Below, in pieces: positions 4,214-61,705 of a stretch of 64,000 bases of DNA (its first letter is position 1; each line of letters starts with the position of its first letter). The notes below the pieces were generated by a model. The model saw only the letters and a list, made by a program, of their open reading frames with translations, did not search any database and was not told where the DNA came from. Source of the stretch: a virus (Duplodnaviria > Heunggongvirae > Uroviricota > Caudoviricetes); the IMG/VR virus record IMGVR_UViG_3300020426_000391, one strand, 5' to 3'. Both the position numbers and the translations under genes were made by a program.

Positions 4214-4290
4214 TGGTGCGCTCGACAGGATTCGAACCTGTGGCCCCCGGATTAGGAATCCGATGCTCTATCCAGCTGAGCTACGAGCGC
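4214..4290 (-). tRNA. tRNA-Arg (anticodon CCU), copy 1, CCA encoded
   Basis: Reverse complement folds as a cloverleaf: GCGCUCGUAGCUCAGCUGGAUAGAGCAUCGGAUUCCUAAUCCGGGGGCCACAGGUUCGAAUCCUGUCGAGCGCACCA. Anticodon loop is UUCCUAA. Confidence 0.85.
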
Positions 4291-6243: not shown

Positions 6244-7233
6244 TCAGGCTGCGATCTGTGAGAGGTGGCGGGGGAGGACGATCTCCGAGATCATCTTCTC
6301 GATCTCTTCATCTTCCGGCTTGGGCGGTAGCACGCTGTCGATCCGGTCGAGTTCGTCGACGAGGCCCTCGAGAAGGGGCTGGATCTCCGGATAGGCGAAC
6401 TTGCCGAGCTTGATGGCGAGCAGTTCCTCGGCATCGGGACGCGGAAAGGTGATGCTGCCCGTGAGCATGAGCTCGTGCGCCTGACGCGCGACGCGCACCG
6501 CGTGGCTGACGGCCTTCCAGTCGACCCCGTTGCTATCCTTGGCCTTGCGCGCCCGGTCACCGTAGTTCTTCCAGACGGCGCCGTAGATCTTGGAGGCCTC
6601 CTCCAGGTCGTTGCGCATCGAGACCTTGCGGTCGCAGCACTCGATGTGGAGCATGTCCGGCGTATGTCCCGAGGAGAGGACGATCATGTTCGCCATCTCG
6701 ACGCGCTCGGTGAACGCGCGGAGATCGTCCTCGATCACCTCCAGCCGGGTCTTGGGGCCGTGCTTCTCCTTGGCTTCGGCCAGAAGGACGACGAGCTTCT
6801 CGACCGCTTCCATGCGGCTGCCCTTGACGCCGTATTTCGCGGCCTGCTGCTTGCAGTATCCGACGAAGCCCTTGCAATCCGCATTGAGCAGTGTGCGTGC
6901 CTCGGCGCGCAGTGTCTCCCATTCCGGTGCGGCCTCGACGATGCAGTCGTCGGGAGCGAACAGGATCTCGGTCGCGACGCCGTCGCCCAGCGCCAGCATG
7001 CGGCAGAACTTCTCCACCGAGTAGGACTGGTGGTCCACGGCGTCACCTGTGTTCTTGCCGGCCGCGTTCTTCGCCTTGATCGATTCGTCGAACACGTTCT
7101 CGGGACGCTGGAGGAGGATGCCCCTGCCGCTGGGAAGATGGACACCCTTGTAATCCTCGTCCGAAGATGGCGTGCTCGTGCCGTACAGGTGCGAACCGTG
7201 AACGGTGGTGACGAGCTTTCGGAGCGGCTTCAT
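6244..7233 (-). CDS. Pol-beta superfamily nucleotidyltransferase (about 330 aa) with a C-terminal helical domain
   Basis: hG[GS]-x10-D-x-[DE] motif VHGSHLYGTSTPSSDEDY; further acidic residues at GDAVDH and FAPDDC. Likely start MKPLRKL at residue 32 of track ORF 6244..7326, directly after the upstream stop. Confidence 0.6.
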   Translation of the reverse strand: MKPLRKLVTTVHGSHLYGTSTPSSDEDYKGVHLPSGRGILLQRPENVFDESIKAKNAAGKNTGDAVDHQSYSVEKFCRMLALGDGVATEILFAPDDCIVEAAPEWETLRAEARTLLNADCKGFVGYCKQQAAKYGVKGSRMEAVEKLVVLLAEAKEKHGPKTRLEVIEDDLRAFTERVEMANMIVLSSGHTPDMLHIECCDRKVSMRNDLEEASKIYGAVWKNYGDRARKAKDSNGVDWKAVSHAVRVARQAHELMLTGSITFPRPDAEELLAIKLGKFAYPEIQPLLEGLVDELDRIDSVLPPKPEDEEIEKMISEIVLPRHLSQIAA

Positions 7234-7460
7234 ACGTAGACCCTGCGTGCTTCGCGTGCCGCGTGCTCGGCGCGTGCACGGGCCATGGTGGCCGACGCGC
7301 TCTCGGCTCGTTTCTTCAGCGCGCACGAGACGTGCTGCGTGAAGATGGCGGTGTAGTCCGAAGGCTTGCCGCCGAACTTGCGAGCTCGTTCCGCGGCCGA
7401 GGGGACGAGCTTGATGGGCTTGCTGCAGATCGTGCAGTGACCCTTGGGCGTCTTGCTCAT
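7230..7460 (-). CDS. hypothetical small basic protein, possibly Zn-binding (C-x2-C ... H-x3-C)
   Basis: Internal start MSKTPKGHCTICSKPIKLVP... in track ORF 7230..7706. Its stop overlaps the NTase start. Confidence 0.45.
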   Translation of the reverse strand: MSKTPKGHCTICSKPIKLVPSAAERARKFGGKPSDYTAIFTQHVSCALKKRAESASATMARARAEHAAREARRVYV

Positions 7461-29567: not shown

Positions 29568-30686
29568 TCAGTCGTCCTGCCCGAATTTCCTGAGGAAGAC
29601 GTCGCAGTGCGTCTTCAGTATCGGTCGCATGAAATTGCCGAGCTTGGTCTGGCGCATGTCCTGTTCGCCGACAGCCCGGATGACGATTCCCTCGCGGATG
29701 TGCTTGGCATCGAGAGTGGTGTCCCCCTCGCGCAGTTCCTCGACCTTTGCCGCGTCGTACATGCCGCGCCACAGCACGGGTGCGGGCTGGATCCCGGCCT
29801 GCATGAGATAGCTGTCGATCTCGGTCTCGTTGAGCCAGCGCTGGCCCACGCGGATGTCGAATCCGCGCACGGATGGCTTGCTCTGGCCGTAGTGAAGCTT
29901 CTTGATGCCCGGCCCGATGGCTTCGGCGAAGAGCTGGACGGTCTGGTCGGCCGCGCGCATATTGTGGACCATCATGCCGAAGCGGCGGATGAGATCGGCG
30001 TTGCGCGCGGCGCGGATGACGGGCACCTTCTCTGAGGCCTCGCACTCGCGGAAGATGAGACCTTGTCGGGCGAGTCCCTTGGTGGCGATCGCGATCTGTC
30101 CGTCACCGTGAGCCCCTTCGACCGGTTCGTCACCGAGCCAGGTCATTTGGAGGCACTCGCCTTCGAGCTTCTCGGTGATGACGACCTCCGAGCCTTCCAG
30201 GAATTCGGGATAGGTCTTGAGTCGGCCGATCTGGTAGTCCACCTTGGCGCGAGCGACGGGCATGGCGATCTTCAGGAGTTCGGGGTCGATCTCCGGAATC
30301 CATTCGGTGATGCCGAAGTGGTCCGAGACGTCGGTGGTATCGGGCAGGTGCGCGAGTTCATCGGGCAGCTTCCACAGCAGCCCTGTCGAGAGCTGGCCGC
30401 GCAGGGTGACCGGCTTGATGACGTCGCCGCCGGGGCCGGAGAGGAGGCCCATCTCGGTTTCCTTCTGGGGATGCAGGCCCCAGAAGCCGTGCTCCTTGAG
30501 GAGATTCTCGGGCAGGCGGCAGCCCTCTGCCACGTAGACGACCCGTTCGCCGACGGCGAACCGCGGGCTGCCGTCGGGCAGGTTGTTGCTCACGGCGTCG
30601 TATCCGAGGACCTTGTAGGCTGTGAGCCGATCGGCCTTGGGGATGTGATGCGTGCCGGTGATGGGAAGAATGCGTGCGGTCGTCAT
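29568..30686 (-). CDS. ATP-dependent RNA ligase-like nucleotidyltransferase (Rnl family)
   Basis: Motif I EKLEG (KxxG), motif III LFAEAIGPG, motif IV REGIVIR (EGhVh), motif V TKLGNFMRPILK. Confidence 0.55.
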   Translation of the reverse strand: MTTARILPITGTHHIPKADRLTAYKVLGYDAVSNNLPDGSPRFAVGERVVYVAEGCRLPENLLKEHGFWGLHPQKETEMGLLSGPGGDVIKPVTLRGQLSTGLLWKLPDELAHLPDTTDVSDHFGITEWIPEIDPELLKIAMPVARAKVDYQIGRLKTYPEFLEGSEVVITEKLEGECLQMTWLGDEPVEGAHGDGQIAIATKGLARQGLIFRECEASEKVPVIRAARNADLIRRFGMMVHNMRAADQTVQLFAEAIGPGIKKLHYGQSKPSVRGFDIRVGQRWLNETEIDSYLMQAGIQPAPVLWRGMYDAAKVEELREGDTTLDAKHIREGIVIRAVGEQDMRQTKLGNFMRPILKTHCDVFLRKFGQDD

Positions 30687-39993: not shown

Positions 39994-40079
39994 GGAGGGT
40001 GGCGCAGGATGGCTGCAAACCGGATTCGAAACCCGGGCCTACCGAAAGGTAGAGAGTTCGACTCTTTCACCTTCCGCCA
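39994..40079 (+). tRNA. tRNA-Ser-like, anticodon CGA, type II with a non-canonical D-arm
   Basis: GGAGGGU acceptor pairs with ACCUUCC-G-CCA. Anticodon arm CCGGA UUCGAAA CCCGG, variable hairpin CUACCGAAAGGUAG, T-arm GAGAG UUCGACU CUUUC. The D region cannot be folded canonically. Confidence 0.45.
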
Positions 40080-40090
40080 GTTCACATGAA

Positions 40091-40126
40091 GGCGTCAGTT
40101 CCCCTCTCGGGATCTGACGCCTTTTT
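40091..40126 (+). terminator. rho-independent terminator inside the tRNA array
   Basis: ggcgtcag...ctgacgcc hairpin followed by TTTTT. Confidence 0.5.
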
Positions 40127-40151: not shown

Positions 40152-40241
40152 GGGTAGTCAAAGCCATACTGGATTTGCGCAACCGGACTGTAAATCCGGT
40201 CCTCGAAAGAGGGGGAGGTTCGATTCCTCGGCTGCCCACCA
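40152..40241 (+). tRNA. tRNA-Tyr-like, anticodon GUA, type II with an aberrant D-arm (possible pseudo-tRNA)
   Basis: Acceptor GGGUAGU/GCUGCCC with two G-U pairs, A73, CCA. Anticodon arm CCGGA CUGUAAA UCCGG, variable hairpin CCUCGAAAGAGG, T-loop UUCGAUU. Confidence 0.4.
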
Positions 40242-41952: not shown

Positions 41953-43302
41953 TCACTTGTGCGTCTTGTAGGCGACGTGACGATATGTGCTGTAACTGGA
42001 GCACCGAGCCTGACCGTAGAGCCTCGCTTCGATCTGGCTGCACAGGGAAGTGCTATCGCCATTGCGGTAATAGCTCCTCCAGACGAGATTGGGCGTTCCA
42101 TCCCATGTCCGCTGCCAGGCGGTCCCGATGTAGAGGCTCTCATCCTGTGTGAAGGCCATGCCGGGAGCGGTCTCGTATTCGGTCGCATAAAGAGCACCGA
42201 TGCTGGTGATGTTCGCGCCCGACATTCCGTCGGCCTTCCACTTGTCGATCGCCTCGCGGTTCTTGCGGAACCAGTAGGCGATGTAGTCGGCCTTCTCCAG
42301 GACGCTTGCATTGCCCGCGGGAATCGGTCCGGTCCACAGGGGTATGTCCCCCTCGGGCGCGCCTTCGCTCGTGTTGTAGATGGGCTGGGTGTAGACATGC
42401 CAGACATAGTAGTTCGAGTTCGGTAGTCCGGAATCGGCGGCAGTCACGGCTCTTGCCAGATCACCCTTAGCACCGATGCCGGCAGAGCCGTCGAAATCGG
42501 CGATCACGATCGTCGATCCGTCTGGAGCACCATGCATTCTCTGCCATGCCCGCGTGACCCCGATGTAGGATATCTCGGGCCAGGAGGGCGGCATGCTGTA
42601 GAGGAAGCCGGCATCGTAGAGCGACTTGGTCGACGGGAAGGATCCCGAGCCTTCGTCGATCCAGGCATCGGCAGCGGCCTCGACCTGCCGGATGTAGCAT
42701 GCCAGCCACGTCCCGCGAACGTTCATCGCGGCATTTGCTGCCGGCTGGGCGCCGCATATGTCTGGCTGCGTGAAGCGCACGGGAGCCTGCGGACCCGTAT
42801 CCACGGGACCTCCTCCGGTCGCCACCTCTCCTATGCAGCATGGCTCACGGCCTCCGAGCCTTCCGTCCGGGGAGTCGGACCCGTCGCAGCGATAGACACC
42901 GGTCGCGGTGTTCGCCTTGGGAAGGTCGAGCTGTTGCCTCGCCTTGAGGCAGATGTTCAGACTTTCCTCGTGATCCGTGGGGCCGAGCTTGGCTCGTATC
43001 ATGCCGCCGTCGTAGTCGATCGCCCAGCGGTCGACCTCCATCGTCCGTGTCCCGATCGGCTGGTAGTCCAGATAGCCGGCCGATATCAATTCCTGCACCG
43101 GGTCGCCGCTCGTCGGATAGTGACCCTCCTGACGGTAGTAGAGCTCTAGTGCCGCCTCCATCTGTGCACCCTCGCCGACCAGGCGGCCGGCTTCCGCCTC
43201 GATCCGTCCGTTTCCGAAGGCGTCACCACCATAATACAGGATGAAGAGGACCGAGGCAGCTGCCAGCAGGACACCTAGGATGACGAGAGTGATCGTGGTC
43301 AT
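41953..43302 (-). CDS. membrane-anchored extracytoplasmic protein (about 449 aa), Cys-rich
   Basis: N-terminal TM MTTITLVILGVLLAAASVLFILYY, then a large Cys-containing domain. Start adjusted to MTTITLV. Confidence 0.5.
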   Translation of the reverse strand: MTTITLVILGVLLAAASVLFILYYGGDAFGNGRIEAEAGRLVGEGAQMEAALELYYRQEGHYPTSGDPVQELISAGYLDYQPIGTRTMEVDRWAIDYDGGMIRAKLGPTDHEESLNICLKARQQLDLPKANTATGVYRCDGSDSPDGRLGGREPCCIGEVATGGGPVDTGPQAPVRFTQPDICGAQPAANAAMNVRGTWLACYIRQVEAAADAWIDEGSGSFPSTKSLYDAGFLYSMPPSWPEISYIGVTRAWQRMHGAPDGSTIVIADFDGSAGIGAKGDLARAVTAADSGLPNSNYYVWHVYTQPIYNTSEGAPEGDIPLWTGPIPAGNASVLEKADYIAYWFRKNREAIDKWKADGMSGANITSIGALYATEYETAPGMAFTQDESLYIGTAWQRTWDGTPNLVWRSYYRNGDSTSLCSQIEARLYGQARCSSYSTYRHVAYKTHK

Positions 43303-43438
43303 GGCATTTCCGTCGATGGAATAGAAGGATAGCCGTGTTTTTAGGATGAATGGACTTCGTCCCGCAACCACCCGAGGAGGGGTTTATGCTTGCGCATGCG
43401 GAAATGTCCGAAGGCTCTCGTCGGGCGAGTGCGGATGC

Positions 43439-44075: not shown

Positions 44076-44152
44076 TGGTGCGCTCGACAGGATTCGAACC
44101 TGTGGCCTCCGGATTAGGAATCCGATGCTCTATCCGACTGAGCTACGAGCGC
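44076..44152 (-). tRNA. tRNA-Arg (anticodon CCU), copy 2, CCA encoded
   Basis: Same cloverleaf as copy 1 with 3 substitutions (cctccgg vs cccccgg; ccgactg vs ccagctg). Confidence 0.85.
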
Positions 44153-44467: not shown

Positions 44468-44553
44468 ATGGAGGCCCAGACAGGATTTGAACCTGCGTTC
44501 CTTTCGGAAACCATGGATTTGCAGTCCAGTACCTTACCGCTCGGTCACCGGGC
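44468..44553 (-). tRNA. atypical type II (long variable arm) tRNA with anticodon GCA and discriminator U73, CCA encoded
   Basis: RC GGCCCGG UG ACC GAGCGGUAA GGU A CUGGA CUGCAAA UCCAU GGUUUCCGAAAGGAAC GCAGG UUCAAAU CCUGU CUGGGCC U CCA. Confidence 0.6.
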
Positions 44554-44599
44554 CCCTTCGATGCGACCTTGTAGGATGAGGTCGCGAATTGTCAAATGC

Positions 44600-45250
44600 C
44601 TACCAGCGTTCTCCGCAGATGAACGCCATGTTCCCGGCTTGCGGACGGATCATGAGATTGCGTTCCGCCATGATCTCGAGCCCCCAGGTCTTCTCCTCCA
44701 GGCCGGGAACGCGCTGGACGCGCAGCTTCAGGCCGAGTTCCGGCACCTCGATGATCTCGGTGGGGATGAGCTTGCCCTTGAAGGGGCCATGCTGCCGCCA
44801 TACGACGAACTCCTCGGGCTCGCCCTGCGGTTCGCCGAAGGCCTTCTCGGCCTGCTTGATTGCGCTGTCACGGGACTTCTCGGCAGAGGCGATCCGGTCT
44901 GCCGCCCACTTGGGCAGACGCTTCATACGCCTTTCCTCCAGTTCCGCGGCGTCCAGCCTGGCATCGGGCACGTCCGGTCCTTCGATGTCGAGGTTCTGCG
45001 CGGCGTCTTCGAGAACGGTCTTCAGATCGAATCCGTCGATCGCGTCGATGAGCTCCTCGAGCGCTCCGTGGTCCATGGCCATGATCTGTCCGTTGTCGCC
45101 TTCACGCGCTCCATCGCTCATGTTGTCGAGCGATTCGCCGAGATCGTCGCGGATGCCACGCAGGTCGTCGAGAGCGGCCTCCATGGTCGTTCGCGCTGCC
45201 GCGATCGCTTCGAGAGCCTTCTTCGCCTTCGCGCTGCGCTGCTTGTTCAT
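44600..45250 (-). CDS. hypothetical protein (about 216 aa)
   Basis: Internal start MNKQRSAKAKK; ATGA overlap with the upstream gene. Confidence 0.4.
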   Translation of the reverse strand: MNKQRSAKAKKALEAIAAARTTMEAALDDLRGIRDDLGESLDNMSDGAREGDNGQIMAMDHGALEELIDAIDGFDLKTVLEDAAQNLDIEGPDVPDARLDAAELEERRMKRLPKWAADRIASAEKSRDSAIKQAEKAFGEPQGEPEEFVVWRQHGPFKGKLIPTEIIEVPELGLKLRVQRVPGLEEKTWGLEIMAERNLMIRPQAGNMAFICGERW

Positions 45251-45645
45251 GTCTGCTTCTCCCTGTCCCTCATTCGGGTTCCGCGCGTGATGGCGTTCGA
45301 ATCCGTCTTGCTCATCGGCCCCATGATGGCGCATGTCTGTGTCGGGCCGGCAAAGACCGTCCTGCCCTGGTCCCGCACGATCTCGACGTGGACGCCACGT
45401 TTGCGCGCTCTCTCGACGACCTTGGCCAGATGGTCTTCATCATCTACCTCGATGCATATCTTCGGTTGCCCGTCGGCGAGATACTGGTTGACGAGAAGCG
45501 GCTTGTCGATGGCGAGGCGGACGCCCGCCGAGAAGGCCGCATGTGCTGCCTGGACCTCGGACTTGCCTCTGGTCATCTCGTCGAGGTCGCCGCGGAACGC
45601 GAGCACCATCCTCATTTCCGCGTGGTTCTCCGCTTTCTTGTCCAT
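45247..45645 (-). CDS. peptidyl-tRNA hydrolase, PTH2 family
   Basis: RMVLAFRGDLDEMTRGKSEVQAAHAA, GQPKICIEVDDEDHL and DQGRTVFAGPTQTCAIMGP align block by block with archaeal/eukaryotic Pth2. Confidence 0.7.
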   Translation of the reverse strand: MDKKAENHAEMRMVLAFRGDLDEMTRGKSEVQAAHAAFSAGVRLAIDKPLLVNQYLADGQPKICIEVDDEDHLAKVVERARKRGVHVEIVRDQGRTVFAGPTQTCAIMGPMSKTDSNAITRGTRMRDREKQT

Positions 45646-52680: not shown

Positions 52681-53712
52681 TCAGCCGATCGCCCGCGAGT
52701 TGATCCCGAACTGGCAGAGCAGTCCGGTCTCCAGCCATTCCAGCATGAAGTCGACTCCGGAGTTTGAGCTCATCCGCTTCATCAGCTGATGCCCGCTGCC
52801 GCTGTCTCCCGGGACTATCGGCACACCCGAATCCTCGCTCCATGTGAAGGTGAGAATGCCCTCCTTCTCCTGGCATTCGATCCTGACCGTTCCCTGGTCC
52901 TCGGAGAGGGCTCCGTATTTGAGGGCATTGGTCGAGAGTTCGCCGAAGATGAGGGCCATGGTCGCCAGGGCCTGTGGCCCTACGGTCGCCTCCGGCATCC
53001 CGGAGATAGTCACCTGCCTGCTTCTGCCCGTGGCCGCCAGGATGGACTGGATGGCCTCGTTCAATTCCACCGGCTGGTTGTCCCGTGCCGAGAGGATGTC
53101 CTGTGAGGTCGAGAGGCTCATCATCCGTCGGTTGAAGGATTCCATGAAGCCCTTGGTGTCATTGTGATCTCTGGCGGTCATGGCGGCCAGAGATCTGATC
53201 GCGGTGATCTGGTTCTTCAGGCGATGCCGCATCTCCCGTGAGATGAGGTCCCGCTCCTCCGCGGTGTTCCTCGCCTCCTCGAGCATGGCCTGGGACTGCA
53301 TCTGCTCGTTCCGGATGCGCGTTATGTCGCGTGACACGGCGAGGGCGCCGCTGACGCCCTTCTCGTCTTCGATGCTGGTCACGGTCACATCCCACCATGC
53401 ATCCTGACCGTTGCGCGGTCGATACGCCTCGAAGCGGTGCCGCCTCCCGTCGAGCGCCTCCTCGAGTCCGATCTGGACACTGGTCCGCGCCGTCTCGGGC
53501 CATTGCATGACCCAGCCTTCGTCCGTCTCCTCCTGGTCTCCGCAAGGGTTAGCATCGGAGGAGTTGGTGGCGATGACCCGCCCGTCCATGCCGATGATCT
53601 CCACGCAGTCACTGCTGCGCATCAGGGCTTCTTCTATTCTGTTCATTCTTTTCCGTCCGGATTCACTTGCTTTATGGATAACCAGCGTCGGGTCGTTCTG
53701 CAATCGTGTCAT
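52681..53712 (-). CDS. PAS-domain HWE-family sensor histidine kinase
   Basis: H-box HRLKNQ (HRxKN) typical of HWE/HisKA_2 kinases, ATPase block ELSTNALKYGA, N-terminal PAS-like region. Convergent with the receiver gene. Confidence 0.75.
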   Translation of the reverse strand: MTRLQNDPTLVIHKASESGRKRMNRIEEALMRSSDCVEIIGMDGRVIATNSSDANPCGDQEETDEGWVMQWPETARTSVQIGLEEALDGRRHRFEAYRPRNGQDAWWDVTVTSIEDEKGVSGALAVSRDITRIRNEQMQSQAMLEEARNTAEERDLISREMRHRLKNQITAIRSLAAMTARDHNDTKGFMESFNRRMMSLSTSQDILSARDNQPVELNEAIQSILAATGRSRQVTISGMPEATVGPQALATMALIFGELSTNALKYGALSEDQGTVRIECQEKEGILTFTWSEDSGVPIVPGDSGSGHQLMKRMSSNSGVDFMLEWLETGLLCQFGINSRAIG

Positions 53713-58242: not shown

Positions 58243-58621
58243 TCGTCGTCAGCCTCTCGATGAGGGCCTTCTTCTTCGCGTCGGTCTGTCCGTTGCGCTT
58301 CCACAGCTTCTTGACGCTTCGCGAGATCTTCATCTCCTGCCAGGTGCTCTTGGAGAGGGATCGCCCGTTCGCCCTCAGGCTGCCGTAGCTTGCGGCCTTG
58401 AAGACGTCGTCTGCCGCCTCGATGGAGCTGTCGCACTCGACGGTGAAGGAATCGGGGTTGTCACGGACTCGTTCGAGATAGATCCTCACCAGTTCGGTAT
58501 CCTCGGGATATCTGCGGCGATGGATGAGGTTCCCGATGGTGAGCGGGAGGACGATCACCGGCAGCACGAAGACCAGGATGATCAGACCGAGGAAGGCGAT
58601 CAGCTCGAGGATGATGTTCAT
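58235..58621 (-). CDS. small membrane-anchored protein
   Basis: MNIILELIAFLGLIILVFVLPVIVLPL TM segment. Confidence 0.45.
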   Translation of the reverse strand: MNIILELIAFLGLIILVFVLPVIVLPLTIGNLIHRRRYPEDTELVRIYLERVRDNPDSFTVECDSSIEAADDVFKAASYGSLRANGRSLSKSTWQEMKISRSVKKLWKRNGQTDAKKKALIERLTTNG

Positions 58622-59493
58622 TTGCGTTTTTCCTTCGTTATGCGGTCGTTTTCCGTCCACCGGTCGATGTCGATGAAGGCGGCCTCCCCGCGTTTATAGG
58701 AGGCGATGTCGATCCAACTCCGGTTCCCCCATGTCAGCGGCTCCTTCAGGATCGTGTGGCCATGGAAGACGTGATCGATGTTCTCCACGATGTCCGAGGG
58801 GCGGGGCCGTGACCTGCTTGCGTGTTCGTGCTTGATGCGTCGGATCTCATCGCGCTCCCACATGGCGTCGCTGGCGATGAAGCCGTCCGGACCCTGCTCC
58901 TGCAGAATGCCGGTGAACGGGTTCCAGTCGAGCCTGCCGTGGATGCGTCGCACCTCACCATGGACGATACCGATCCTGTTGCCGGCGGGAGTTGTGATGG
59001 TGAGCGCTATGGGTGCCCCGCAGACGGCGGCGACGATTCTGCGCCCGCGCCGGTCCATGAGGAGGTTGCCGTCCGCATCCCTGTCGTCATCATCCCCGTC
59101 TCCGTCCTGCGGGAGATGATCGAGGATCCAGCTGCCGCCGTTCCTTATGAGATCGACCGGACTGATGCCTCCGTTCCTGGGACGCACGGCATCCTCGAGC
59201 ATCTGCTCGTGATTGCCCTTGACGAAGACGAGGTTGTCCGTATGCCGATCGATGAACTTGGCGACCTTCGTCGTGTGATCTCCTCGGTCCAGCCAGTCCC
59301 CGAGACCGATCATGCGATCTCCGGCCTCGTGATCGTAGTCGACCTTTTTCATGGCACGCCGGATCGGATCGATGTTCCCGTGGACGTCTCCGAACACGAA
59401 GATCCTCCGTGCGGATCCGTAGTCCAGTTCGATATGGGCGGACTGCTGCTCGAACGTGGCCGCGGCGTATGCGGGCTCGTCCTTGTTGTTCAT
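58618..59493 (-). CDS. metallophosphoesterase (PPP-family Ser/Thr phosphatase, lambda-phosphatase-like)
   Basis: GDVHG, GDWLDRG and GNHE motifs. Confidence 0.8.
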   Translation of the reverse strand: MNNKDEPAYAAATFEQQSAHIELDYGSARRIFVFGDVHGNIDPIRRAMKKVDYDHEAGDRMIGLGDWLDRGDHTTKVAKFIDRHTDNLVFVKGNHEQMLEDAVRPRNGGISPVDLIRNGGSWILDHLPQDGDGDDDDRDADGNLLMDRRGRRIVAAVCGAPIALTITTPAGNRIGIVHGEVRRIHGRLDWNPFTGILQEQGPDGFIASDAMWERDEIRRIKHEHASRSRPRPSDIVENIDHVFHGHTILKEPLTWGNRSWIDIASYKRGEAAFIDIDRWTENDRITKEKRK

Positions 59494-59506: not shown

Positions 59507-60361
59507 TCACATGGTCATCCATGAATCATCGAAGCCGTCGGGCGCCTCCGCCATTGCCTCCTCGCTCGGATGCAGGGTCATGCTCAGAACCGTCTCTCCA
59601 TCATGATCGATGATGCGTCGGACACTCTGGATGAGGACATCCTCGTTTCCCTCGATGAACGGCGCATCGACCACCTCACCGATCCTCCTTCCCGGAAGTG
59701 CCAGCGTCACCGCTTCGGGCAGTGGCCGCTTGATCTCCAGTCTCACCGTGCGATCGGTCTGGTTCGAGAACAGCTTCACATCGCGCGACGCGTTCTGGAT
59801 CCCGGCGCACACCGCGTATCCGTCTATGAAATACCATTCGCCGACATCGACGCCCTTCGGCGGGTGAAGCGTATTCATGTATGCCGCTTCACCTTGTATC
59901 GAGAGATCGCATCCCTCCTTTTCGAGCCATCTCTTCGTGACCGAGTGGATCGTATGCGTCCAGGGGTCTCTCTCGCAGGTTCCCCGGTGCGATAGCATGG
60001 CACGATATCGACGCGTCGCACGGATGGACCGCTCGACATAGGATCTGAAGAGATGTTCGCCCTCGAATGCGTCACGTGGCTGCTGGATCTCGCTATGCCT
60101 GTCGGCCCTCCTGCGAAGGAGTTCCTTGAGATTGACGGTCTCCTTGGGTTCGATGTTAGTCGGCGTCGAAAGGACTAGCGTGACGTTCTTGCGGCATTCG
60201 TTGGATGGCGCGCTGCGCACGAGTGTCACGGATGATTCGTTGGTCCTCTCGATTGAGATGTCATGATGCTCGAGTCCGGCATCACGGAATCGCCGGGATA
60301 TCTCGGCGTCGAGATCGGTGGCGAAGTCGCCCGTGCGGCGATCTGCTTCCTGGATCTTCAT
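59507..60361 (-). CDS. hypothetical protein (about 284 aa)
   Basis: Internal start MKIQEADRRTG. Confidence 0.4.
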   Translation of the reverse strand: MKIQEADRRTGDFATDLDAEISRRFRDAGLEHHDISIERTNESSVTLVRSAPSNECRKNVTLVLSTPTNIEPKETVNLKELLRRRADRHSEIQQPRDAFEGEHLFRSYVERSIRATRRYRAMLSHRGTCERDPWTHTIHSVTKRWLEKEGCDLSIQGEAAYMNTLHPPKGVDVGEWYFIDGYAVCAGIQNASRDVKLFSNQTDRTVRLEIKRPLPEAVTLALPGRRIGEVVDAPFIEGNEDVLIQSVRRIIDHDGETVLSMTLHPSEEAMAEAPDGFDDSWMTM

Positions 60362-61458
60362 CGTCTTTTCCACCACTCCTTCCTGGCAGGAACCGCCTCG
60401 TATCTCCGCTCGGGCCAGAGAAGCGCTGTAAGATCCCCGCCGAACACGCATCCGGTGTCGATGGCGATGACGTTGTTCAATTCGCGTGGGGCGTCGTGGA
60501 CCACATGACCATGCACGACGGTGGCCTCACCCGTGTATTCCTCCGCCCAGTCGATCGAGAGCGGGTATCCATCCGCATCGACGCCGCCGCATTCGGATGG
60601 CTTTCCGTAGAGGGCGAAGCTGTGCGCTCCCCCTGTCATGCGGCCTTGATACTCCTCATCGATGCCGGCATGGGCGACGACGAGACGCCCACCGTCCAGA
60701 AGATAGTGTGCTTCTGCAGAGAGCATCCATGCTCCCCAGTCCGCACGCTCCTCATGAGTCATGCCAGCGAACTCGTCGATGGTCGGCTGTTGTCCCGGAC
60801 CGACCTTGACATCCCTGCCGTTCAACCATTTCCCGATCTTGGCGTCGTGGTTGCCGAGGACACGCAGACCTCCTTGCTCCTCCAGGCGGCGAGCCATTCG
60901 CATGACGGCCAGATTCATGGGTCCGCGATCGACCAGGTCCCCGAGCAGGACGGTCCTCCGCCCGCTCTCGTGCTTGCGGATGGAGGTGTGGAACTCGTCA
61001 GGACCGCCTTGCTCCCATCCGCTCTCCATGTAGCCCAGCCTCTCGAGGAGATCCCCGAATTCCAGCGCGCATCCATGGATGTCACCGATCAGGTCGAAAG
61101 GTCCCTCGTCGCTGCGCCTGTCGAGAGCCATCGGCGCGAAGCGACAGGGAAGATCGATCCGTTCGGCGCATGCCTCCCACTTGTCTTCCAGGACATACGG
61201 GACGAAGCCCTTCTTGCGCGCGCGCGATGCTATCGCCTTGACGGTCTTCTCGTATGGCAGTGCCATCGTGACCATGAGACGCGGATTGGAATCCAGGAGT
61301 TCTCCCAGCTTCACCAGCGACTCATCGGGTCTCTGTGCGTCCCATTCGTAGATCACCGGCTCGCCCCAGAGAGACATTGCCTTCAGGACCTCTGCGCGGT
61401 TTCCGTCGGGGAGTGTCGACATGACGACCGATCGTTCACAAGGCGTGGTGGTCGTCAT
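60358..61458 (-). CDS. metallophosphoesterase with an N-terminal extra domain
   Basis: GDIHGC, GDLVDRGP and GNHD motifs. Start taken at MTTTTPCERS to clear the upstream gene. Confidence 0.7.
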   Translation of the reverse strand: MTTTTPCERSVVMSTLPDGNRAEVLKAMSLWGEPVIYEWDAQRPDESLVKLGELLDSNPRLMVTMALPYEKTVKAIASRARKKGFVPYVLEDKWEACAERIDLPCRFAPMALDRRSDEGPFDLIGDIHGCALEFGDLLERLGYMESGWEQGGPDEFHTSIRKHESGRRTVLLGDLVDRGPMNLAVMRMARRLEEQGGLRVLGNHDAKIGKWLNGRDVKVGPGQQPTIDEFAGMTHEERADWGAWMLSAEAHYLLDGGRLVVAHAGIDEEYQGRMTGGAHSFALYGKPSECGGVDADGYPLSIDWAEEYTGEATVVHGHVVHDAPRELNNVIAIDTGCVFGGDLTALLWPERRYEAVPARKEWWKRR

Positions 61459-61471
61459 GGATTTTTCCCTT

Positions 61472-61705
61472 CTAATGCTTGGTCGATACTCCTGTCCCGT
61501 CACGGGAGGAATCATCGAAGAGGTCCTCGACACTCTGGCCGAGGACCCTCGATATTCTCATTGCACTGCGCAGCTTCGGAAGCCCGGCTCCGCGTTCTAT
61601 CGTGTTTATGGCCTGACGCGACAATCCCACCTTGTCACCGAGCGCTCCCTGGGAGAGACCGGCATCCTGCCGCGCCTGGATCATGAGGGTCCGTGTCTCG
61701 CCCAT
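61472..61705 (-). CDS. XRE-family HTH transcriptional regulator
   Basis: LSQGALGDKVGLSRQAINTIERG helix-turn-helix. Confidence 0.8.
   Translation of the reverse strand: MGETRTLMIQARQDAGLSQGALGDKVGLSRQAINTIERGAGLPKLRSAMRISRVLGQSVEDLFDDSSRDGTGVSTKH

Follow-up and report, generated by a model that had tools for sequence, protein, structure and literature searches.

Which amino acid is inserted by a phage tRNA that carries a long variable arm together with the anticodon GCA and the discriminator base U73, and does such a tRNA alter the meaning of UGC? The question is raised by a minus-strand tRNA gene in a 64,000-nt stretch of DNA from a virus of the Caudoviricetes (IMG/VR record IMGVR_UViG_3300020426_000391), the whole of which is called the window here. 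From its letters the gene is probably a functional, separately transcribed phage tRNA-Cys that reads UGC and UGU and inserts cysteine. Alignment shows the arm as 14 extra nucleotides inserted into a tRNA-Cys body that is otherwise ordinary.

An initial annotation had placed the gene at 44468-44553; the right gene had been picked, with coordinates that were one base off, as ARAGORN gave 44469-44554. Nucleotides were numbered from 44554 (nt 1), the gene being read on the minus strand from 44554 to 44469. The base calls made earlier (anticodon GCA, U73, D loop and variable hairpin) were all reproduced by ARAGORN, the Rfam alignment and the cloverleaf drawing, and both ARAGORN and Rfam gave the anticodon as GCA, neither GCU nor GUA. 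In the Infernal comparison with Rfam models that had been proposed as a check, positions 44472-44554 matched the tRNA model (RF00005) at 55.0 bits (E = 7.9e-10, model positions 1-71, gathering score 29), which is above 4 of the 5 Rfam tRNA-model matches to the long-arm tRNAs of the window (43.8-53.2 bits). The tRNA-Sec model (RF01852), for a class with a 13-bp acceptor branch, gave no row at the locus in the Rfam scan, where the best match of the clan was RF00005.

The cloverleaf drawn by ARAGORN has the 7/5 branch arrangement. The acceptor stem of 7 bp (G1-C72, G2-C71, C3-G70, C-G, C-G, G.U, G-C) is followed by U8 and G9, and a D stem of 3 bp (ACC/GGU), with G13 and A22 unpaired, carries the D loop GAGCGGUAA. 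The anticodon stem consists of a C27xU43 mismatch and 4 bp, with the loop CUGCAAA; the A36-A37-A38 run is typical for tRNAs that read UNN codons. The variable region GGUUUCCGAAAGGAAC folds into a hairpin of 4 bp (UUCC/GGAA) closed by a GAAA tetraloop, and a lone unpaired C on its 3' side could act as C48 to G15. The T stem GCAGG/CCUGU has 5 bp and a T loop UUCAAAU. The universal tRNA elements (U8, A14, G18G19, U54-U55-C56, G15/C48 and CCA) are all present. Single-sequence free-energy folding was undistinctive (z = -0.9), as is usual among tRNAs, and the case for a real tRNA is based on the covariance-model score and on conservation in relatives, not on folding energy. The locus thus holds what had been proposed for it, a genuine 7/5 tRNA that unites a long variable arm with GCA and U73, a combination atypical for bacteria.

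A Ser/Leu/Tyr body plan had also been assigned to the gene, and this part was not supported. For isotype scoring, the variable region was stripped, the anticodon was masked, and home-made profiles were used that had been built from IMG/VR phage tRNAs; the classifier sorted 90-99% of its own training sets correctly. The stripped gene scored 46.3 bits with the ordinary phage tRNA-Cys profile and 47.1 bits with that of long-arm Cys tRNAs, vs. 30.5 bits for Ser, 25.0 bits for Tyr and 20.5 bits for Leu. Among cultured phages BLAST returned a single match, a tRNA-Cys of 72 nt from Rhodococcus phage Trina that is 89% identical across nt 8-43 (the D and anticodon arms), and in the alignment the Trina gene with a 14-nt insertion in its variable region corresponds to the gene of the window. 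Trina and ordinary tRNA-Cys share with it GCA, U73, the 3-bp D stem, unpaired 13/22, G1-C72 and the A36-A37-A38 loop, and differ in a variable region of 4-5 nt, against 16 nt with a hairpin here. A short D stem of 3 bp combined with mismatched bases at 13:22 is also characteristic of tRNA-Cys. No co-resident Ser, Tyr or Leu tRNA from which the gene could have arisen recently was found in the window (identity ≤0.66). With a Cys-like body and no likeness to the Ser, Tyr and Leu tRNAs of the window, the gene therefore appears to be a tRNA-Cys with an acquired arm rather than a Ser or Tyr tRNA with a changed anticodon.

Comparison with the features that define each bacterial isotype gave a similar picture. 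The anticodon, U73 and the body agree with tRNA-Cys, and the variable region departs from the short class I loop of 4-5 nt. Of the tRNA-Ser features, the long variable arm is present (a 4-5 bp hairpin), as are G1-C72 and G2-C71; in place of the acceptor set G73/A3-U70 the gene has U73 and C3-G70, and its D loop is without the enlargement at 20a/20b seen in the GAGUGGUUGAA-type loops of phage tRNA-Ser (a role of 20b in tRNA-Ser was reportedly described by Biou and colleagues in 1994). The class II Tyr and Leu sets (A73, with GUA or the Leu tertiary set) are likewise absent, given U73, GCA and the low Tyr and Leu scores; A73 was found in 44 of 45 phage Leu and 20 of 22 phage Tyr genes at the IMG/VR loci sampled. 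U73 and GCA are the major determinants for cysteinyl-tRNA synthetase (CysRS), and U73 alone is enough in minihelices (PMC9976931).

Relatives were collected through homologues of DUF7239, the product of the neighbouring gene (P0001-P0017, 94% down to 66% identity, from a search of 5.8 billion proteins), which led to the syntenic loci L333-L344. A long-arm tRNA-Cys was found at the same site in every relative locus that reaches past DUF7239, and GCA and U73 were invariant, which answers the earlier suggestion that homologues be checked for the same bases. Four distinct sequences of the gene were present among these relatives (alignment A1), with 95.9% of stem cells paired. The sole stem change, A10-U25 to G10-C25, is compensatory and the remaining stem pairs are invariant; U43 changes to A and 27:43 stays unpaired. 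The loops differ by an indel at D-loop 16/17 and by A57 to G in the T loop. In the arm, the loop GAAA becomes GCAA in L339 and L341, the stem of L339 is one pair longer (U.G plus C-G), and no variant has lost the hairpin. Identity to the relatives was 92-100% for the tRNA gene, 70-85% for DUF7239 DNA and 49-76% for the flanks, and the gene was conserved as much as or more than most other tRNAs of these phages. These comparisons point clearly to purifying selection on the gene and to an arm that is kept by selection.

No conserved partner gene besides DUF7239 was found near the tRNA in the syntenic relatives. Other baits added little: an exact 31-mer of the gene had no IMG/VR match, and neither had DUF7239. 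Seryl-tRNA synthetase (SerRS), whose gene also lies in the window, recovered from IMG/VR two distant phages (45-53% identity), one with an ordinary 75-nt tRNA-Cys 8 kb off and the other without, which is uninformative for synteny. From JGI metagenomes the same bait recovered 80 loci (48-63% identity), apparently bacterial serS loci, in which the only tRNAs were ordinary Val and Asn tRNAs.

A promoter-like element, TTGACA-N14-CCTACAA, lies upstream of the gene and suggests that the tRNA is separately transcribed from an apparent promoter of its own. TTGACA and TCATCCTA(C/A)AA were kept in all relatives while the surrounding bases vary, and a single match to the pattern exists in the window, against 0.02 expected by chance. 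We take it to resemble alphaproteobacterial promoters; a generic sigma-70 scan called no promoter upstream of the gene. The -10-like part sits in the loop of an inverted repeat of 5-7 bp around TCATCCTACAA (44555-44600, minus strand), which covaries between relatives with double changes in 3 of 5 pairs and could be an operator or a leader hairpin. The 11-mer TCATCCTAAAA was also seen upstream of a 449-aa open reading frame (ORF), at 43339-43349 on the minus strand.

Proximity to a full SerRS gene had been put forward as relevant to the tRNA. The synthetase gene is there, 1.55 kb off, and the link was not borne out: in L339 and L340 the tRNA is kept, and the 20.6 kb read contains neither SerRS nor a HisRS-like gene; the synthetase also has an (8/4) tRNA-Ser(CGA) with G73 in the same window. 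Phage SerRS is therefore probably not the partner of the Cys tRNA, and tRNA-Ser(CGA) is its likely cognate substrate. In the window, tRNA-Ser(CGA) was not called by ARAGORN and gave a weak Rfam tRNA-Sec match (25 bits); its orthologues in L333, L337 and L339 were called tRNA-Ser(cga) by ARAGORN. A promoter-like TTGACGC-N10-GTTAATAC was observed upstream of it, and a hairpin followed by a T run downstream (~40090-40125). The neighbouring tRNA-Tyr(GUA), also 8/4, was missed by the Rfam tRNA model and matched tRNA-Sec at 29.8 bits; no description of an 8/4 tRNA-Tyr was found in the literature searched.

Codon reassignment, another of the functions first considered, was addressed through the coding sequences. 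The catalytic Cys of a C5 DNA methylase (GIPCTAHS) is encoded by TGC, as is the Cys in the SPQC motif of a second methylase. Serine at these positions would inactivate the methylases, and UGC is therefore not reassigned. Cys codons make up 11.8 per 1000 in phage genes, with 98 TGC vs. 12 TGT. The effect on the genetic code is probably none.

The gene was then placed among phage tRNAs at large. The pattern CTGCAAA-N19-32-GGTTCRANTCC matched at least 120 loci in IMG/VR, and among the matches listed ARAGORN confirmed 54 long-arm GCA tRNAs (48 distinct), with U73 in 52 of the 54, or 46 of the 48 distinct. In most of them the arm is a hairpin of 3-5 bp capped by a tetraloop. Distinct phage tRNA-Ser genes at the same loci carried G2-C71 in 40 of 43 cases, A3-U70 in 35 and G73 in 33, vs. 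G2-C71 in 10 and A3-U70 in 12 of the 48 long-arm Cys genes, in which pairs 2:71 and 3:70 vary as they do in ordinary phage tRNA-Cys. Among the matches listed by a scan open to variable regions of either length, 96 tRNA-Cys genes were ordinary and 10 had the long arm, so that ~9% (10/106) are armed. The classifier assigned a Cys-like body to 30 of the 48 long-arm GCA tRNAs and a Ser-like body to 18. One of these genes (L115:2462-2547) has the body of a cyanophage tRNA-Ser(UGA), with 86% identity to that of Synechococcus phage RB11-B (L450:295-381). The D arm, anticodon stem and T arm are common to both, and the whole acceptor stem, the discriminator (U73 for G73) and the anticodon are changed; the parts replaced are exactly the identity positions, which suggests an apparent Ser-to-Cys identity switch. 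No long-arm GCA tRNA at the IMG/VR loci looked like a recent copy of a co-resident gene (best identity 0.68), and a common IMG/VR long-arm type had no BLAST match in cultured phages. Long arms were also present on phage Asn, Val, Thr, Asp, Ile(UAU), Lys, Met, Glu, Pro and Gly tRNAs, in every case with the discriminator usual for the isotype (L003-L122, L345-L448), and at loci not selected for arm length the long-arm share was ~3-13% per isotype (Asn, Lys, Ile, Met, Val, Glu, Pro). In bacterial and archaeal genomes, pattern matches were mostly non-tRNA, and the GCA tRNAs found were mainly Sec-like or selC*-like; the Sec-like ones from bacteria bear little resemblance to the window tRNA.

A functional tRNA-Cys would be charged by the host CysRS, or by a phage CysRS not seen here, through U73 and GCA, aided by G1-C72/G2-C71/C3-G70, an acceptor end typical of bacterial tRNA-Cys. 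As a class I synthetase, CysRS should leave the variable region exposed to solvent, and an extra hairpin would for that reason be tolerated. EF-Tu and the ribosome would accept the long-arm molecule as they do Ser, Leu and Tyr tRNAs. For the arm itself an anti-defence role, drawn by analogy, is the leading guess: the hairpin may make the phage tRNA a poor substrate of host tRNA nucleases or toxins, and Cys-codon translation would then survive abortive infection. Such a role is plausible because anti-phage systems cleave tRNA variable regions, a cleavage from which the T5 tRNA-Tyr is protected by its distinctive variable loop (PMC13096335, PMC11555353), because the VapC4 toxin of M. tuberculosis cleaves tRNA-Cys alone (PMC13096801), and because the genome has RNA-repair-type genes. 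A wider proposal is that variable-arm hairpins on normally armless tRNAs are a general phage strategy, marking tRNAs as non-host with their identity kept, for escape from nucleases or toxins or for selective handling by phage enzymes. The armed share of tRNA-Cys and of the other isotypes, with the usual discriminators, is the reason for proposing it; we regard it as tentative and somewhat unlikely.

Several points weigh against a plain tRNA-Cys with a protective arm. The covariation is thin, with four sequences and one double change, a level reached by 124 of 500 shuffles. No tRNase blocked by such an arm was identified, and the arm could equally create a new target. A second, ordinary tRNA-Cys is possible elsewhere in the genome, of which 64 kb and ~20 kb were read out of at least 266 kb. 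Like tRNA-Ser, the molecule also has G1-C72 and G2-C71 and leaves just one base unpaired 3' of its arm, and U73 was found in 9 of 43 distinct phage tRNA-Ser genes, so that some serylation is possible. Extended, this last point gives a mistranslating tRNA of dual identity, serylated through its arm by phage or host SerRS, by which UGC and UGU would be read partly as serine. The Ser-like acceptor pairs and arm base, the long arm, C11-G24, the phage SerRS nearby and the Ser-like bodies among phage long-arm GCA tRNAs all agree with it, and SerRS ignores the anticodon and gives G73 moderate weight in E. coli (PMC9976931). We nevertheless consider it improbable: the body of the window tRNA is Cys-like by 16 bits, C3-G70 stands where A3-U70 would be expected and the D loop is without the 20a/20b insertion, the long-arm GCA family conserves U73 and not the SerRS acceptor set, the tRNA persists in L339 and L340 with no SerRS in the stretch read, the catalytic Cys codons of the phage are TGC, and SerRS has a G73 tRNA-Ser of its own.

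Slightly less probable again is a role outside translation, as a decoy or sponge for a tRNA-Cys nuclease or toxin (a decoy had been among the first suggestions), as a primer or as a substrate of a phage enzyme. Genes for tRNA handling are plentiful in the region (an RNA ligase, RlaP, PTH2 and a mini HisRS-like protein), certain irregular tRNAs receive an amino acid yet play no part in translation (PMC5389517), and one bacterial toxin at least acts on tRNA-Cys alone (PMC13096801). The elements needed for translation, among them the anticodon loop, U73, CCA and the T loop, are, however, all intact and conserved, a full set that a decoy would not need, and no conserved neighbour other than DUF7239 was found. 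Decay of a Ser or Tyr tRNA after a point mutation in the anticodon had also been suggested, as CUGCAAA is one substitution from CUGUAAA (Tyr) and from CUGCUAA (Ser). This is very improbable for a gene that stays 92-100% identical, with a compensatory change, while neighbouring DNA drifts, that outscores 4 of the 5 Rfam tRNA-model matches to the long-arm tRNAs of the window, that has no paralogue there (likeness to the Tyr, Leu and Ser tRNAs not above background), and in which U73 instead of A73 or G73 would need a second, coordinated change. Equally hard to credit is an indirect route in which phage SerRS serylates the tRNA and the serine is converted to cysteine on it, as in the Sec and Sep pathways. 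All that speaks for it is that SerRS, a long-arm GCA tRNA and unassigned ORFs (e.g., the 449-aa ORF) lie close together; no SelA-, PSTK- or SepCysS-like gene was found nearby, and the 449-aa ORF is missing from L333, L335 and L337 and SerRS from L339, with the tRNA always there. Codon reassignment, the pseudogene and the indirect Ser-to-Cys pathway were rejected on this evidence.

The genome around the tRNA-Cys is that of a marine jumbo phage of at least 266 kb. The exact SerRS and FtsK-like proteins of the window recur on contigs of 228 and 266 kb from ocean metagenomes (Tara and others), with 100% identity in the overlap; the longer contig is ERZ908552 k127_115918 (265,950 bp), and samples with this phage include ERR599112 and TARA_SAMEA2620113. 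Exact searches with window proteins brought up nothing beyond 100%-identical copies of the tRNA region, and no exact record was found for the right-end ORF. The window has 60-65% G+C and dense short minus-strand ORFs, most without family matches, and ARAGORN called twelve tRNA genes in it. On the minus strand the order is the HisRS-like gene of 174 aa, SerRS, a 147-aa ORF, PTH2, DUF7239, the Cys tRNA, tRNA-Arg(CCU), two small ORFs, tRNA-Arg(UCU), the 449-aa ORF and DUF192, and this block is followed by a plus-strand tRNA cluster (Ser, Tyr, four Leu, Gln). The positions of the features are given in Table 1.

Table 1. Positions of the tRNA-Cys gene, its parts and other features of the window
Feature	Position	Strand	Remarks
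tRNA-Cys(GCA), long variable arm	44469..44554	-	86 nt incl. encoded CCA; ARAGORN, Rfam tRNA, cloverleaf drawing, relatives
Encoded CCA of tRNA-Cys	44469-44471	-	
U73 of tRNA-Cys	44472	-	CCA directly after
Variable region GGUUUCCGAAAGGAAC of tRNA-Cys	44497..44512	-	16 nt; from fold
Anticodon GCA, loop CUGCAAA	44520..44522	-	Gene nt 33-35; same in all four sequence variants
Promoter-like TTGACA-N14-CCTACAA	44569..44595	-	Ends ~14 nt upstream of tRNA nt 1
DUF7239 gene, 216 aa	44600..45250	-	Pfam PF23886; invariable upstream neighbour of tRNA-Cys; context only
PTH2 peptidyl-tRNA hydrolase	45247-45645	-	
Seryl-tRNA synthetase, 421 aa	46101..47366	-	Pfam PF02403 (Seryl_tRNA_N) and PF00587 (class II core)
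HisRS-like catalytic core, 174 aa	47379-47903	-	Adjoins SerRS; motif 2/3 regions of solved HisRS structures, E = 3.5e-24
449-aa ORF	41953-43302	-	No family match
tRNA-Ser(CGA), 8/4	39994-40079	+	G1-C72, G2-C71, A3-U70, G73, CCA; sequence and fold
tRNA-Tyr(GUA)	40152-40241	+	8-bp acceptor, 4-bp T stem, 6-bp anticodon stem, A73
tRNA-Arg(CCU), two genes	4214-4290; 44076-44152	-	~93% identical to each other
RlaP nucleotidyltransferase	6244-7326	-	
RNA ligase	29568-30686	-	
Two metallophosphoesterases	58618-59493; 60358-61533	-	
PAS + HWE-type histidine kinase	52681-53712	-	Adjoins 121-aa response-regulator-like ORF

The RNA ligase, RlaP, PTH2 and the two metallophosphoesterases look like a tRNA repair or rescue toolkit. 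The HisRS-like core is without an anticodon-binding domain and was 94-98% conserved in relatives vs. 83-92% for SerRS; it is missing from L335 and L339. PHROGs, Pfam and the PDB gave no function for the neighbouring ORFs of 449, 147, 96 and 58 aa. Near the SerRS module of two relatives, IS605 OrfB/TnpB (Cas12f-like) genes were seen at different sites (L335:1247-2329, L343:5988-7091), with none in the window. In the phage genes counted, AGG, the codon read by the duplicated tRNA-Arg(CCU), has a frequency of 14.2 per 1000 codons, consistent with tRNA supply for a usually rare codon. HWE kinases are typical of Alphaproteobacteria, and the one found here hints at an alphaproteobacterial host.

What the locus adds is a 7/5 tRNA-Cys with an arm, under clear purifying selection in a marine jumbo-phage lineage, with similar genes making up about one tenth of the sampled phage tRNA-Cys. 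For annotation, armed tRNA-Cys genes may be mistaken for recoding or suppressor tRNAs or for Ser pseudogenes. If the reading as a functional tRNA-Cys is true, CysRS, EF-Tu and the ribosome accept an arm on a class I body, which would be useful in orthogonal tRNA engineering. For phage-host conflict it offers a testable idea, that the variable region is remodelled to keep phage tRNAs away from defences that cut tRNA; should the arm play no such part, the gene is a structural curiosity that leaves the genetic code unchanged.

No description of a 7/5 long-arm tRNA-Cys in phages was found in the literature searched, the coverage of which was incomplete. The closest known molecule is the selC* tRNA-Cys (Mukai et al., 2017, PMC5389517), which shares the long arm, U73 and GCA (selC* also has UCA), and for which charging by CysRS was argued and partly shown, a long-arm selC* tRNA-Cys having been charged in vitro by a CysRS (PMC5389517). 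selC* tRNAs are Sec-like and 8/4, with a bulged A51a and extended D and anticodon stems, and are encoded in anaerobic bacteria next to selB*/cysS*, whereas the window tRNA is 7/5, its D arm is that of an ordinary tRNA-Cys, its anticodon stem has five positions, and it belongs to a phage in which nothing like selB or cysS lies beside it. The allo-tRNAs are likewise non-standard, with a long arm, and sit in phage tRNA clusters: Mukai et al. reported (8/4) tRNA-Ser in marine alphaproteobacterial phages, and (8/4) tRNA-His was linked to such phages (PMC5389517). Allo-tRNAs branch as 8/4 or 9/3 and are presumed to have Ser identity, unlike the 7/5 gene with Cys identity elements described here; the window's own tRNA-Ser(CGA) and tRNA-Tyr are 8/4, unlike its Cys tRNA.

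The T5 escape tRNAs (tRNA-Tyr vs. Retron-Eco7 and Septu, tRNA-Lys vs. PARIS; PMC11555353, PMC13096335, PMC10264068) are likewise phage isoacceptors with their own promoter that differ from the host tRNA where the nucleases act. The likeness to them is one of logic alone. In the nev- and nov-tRNAs of nematodes and other eukaryotes (PMC3333845, PMC4300185) a long arm is again combined with an anticodon outside the Leu, Ser and Tyr sets. There the body of nev-tRNAs dictates charging with Leu, and Gly and Ile codons are misread; in the tRNA described here, body, discriminator and anticodon all agree on Cys, and therefore no recoding would be expected.

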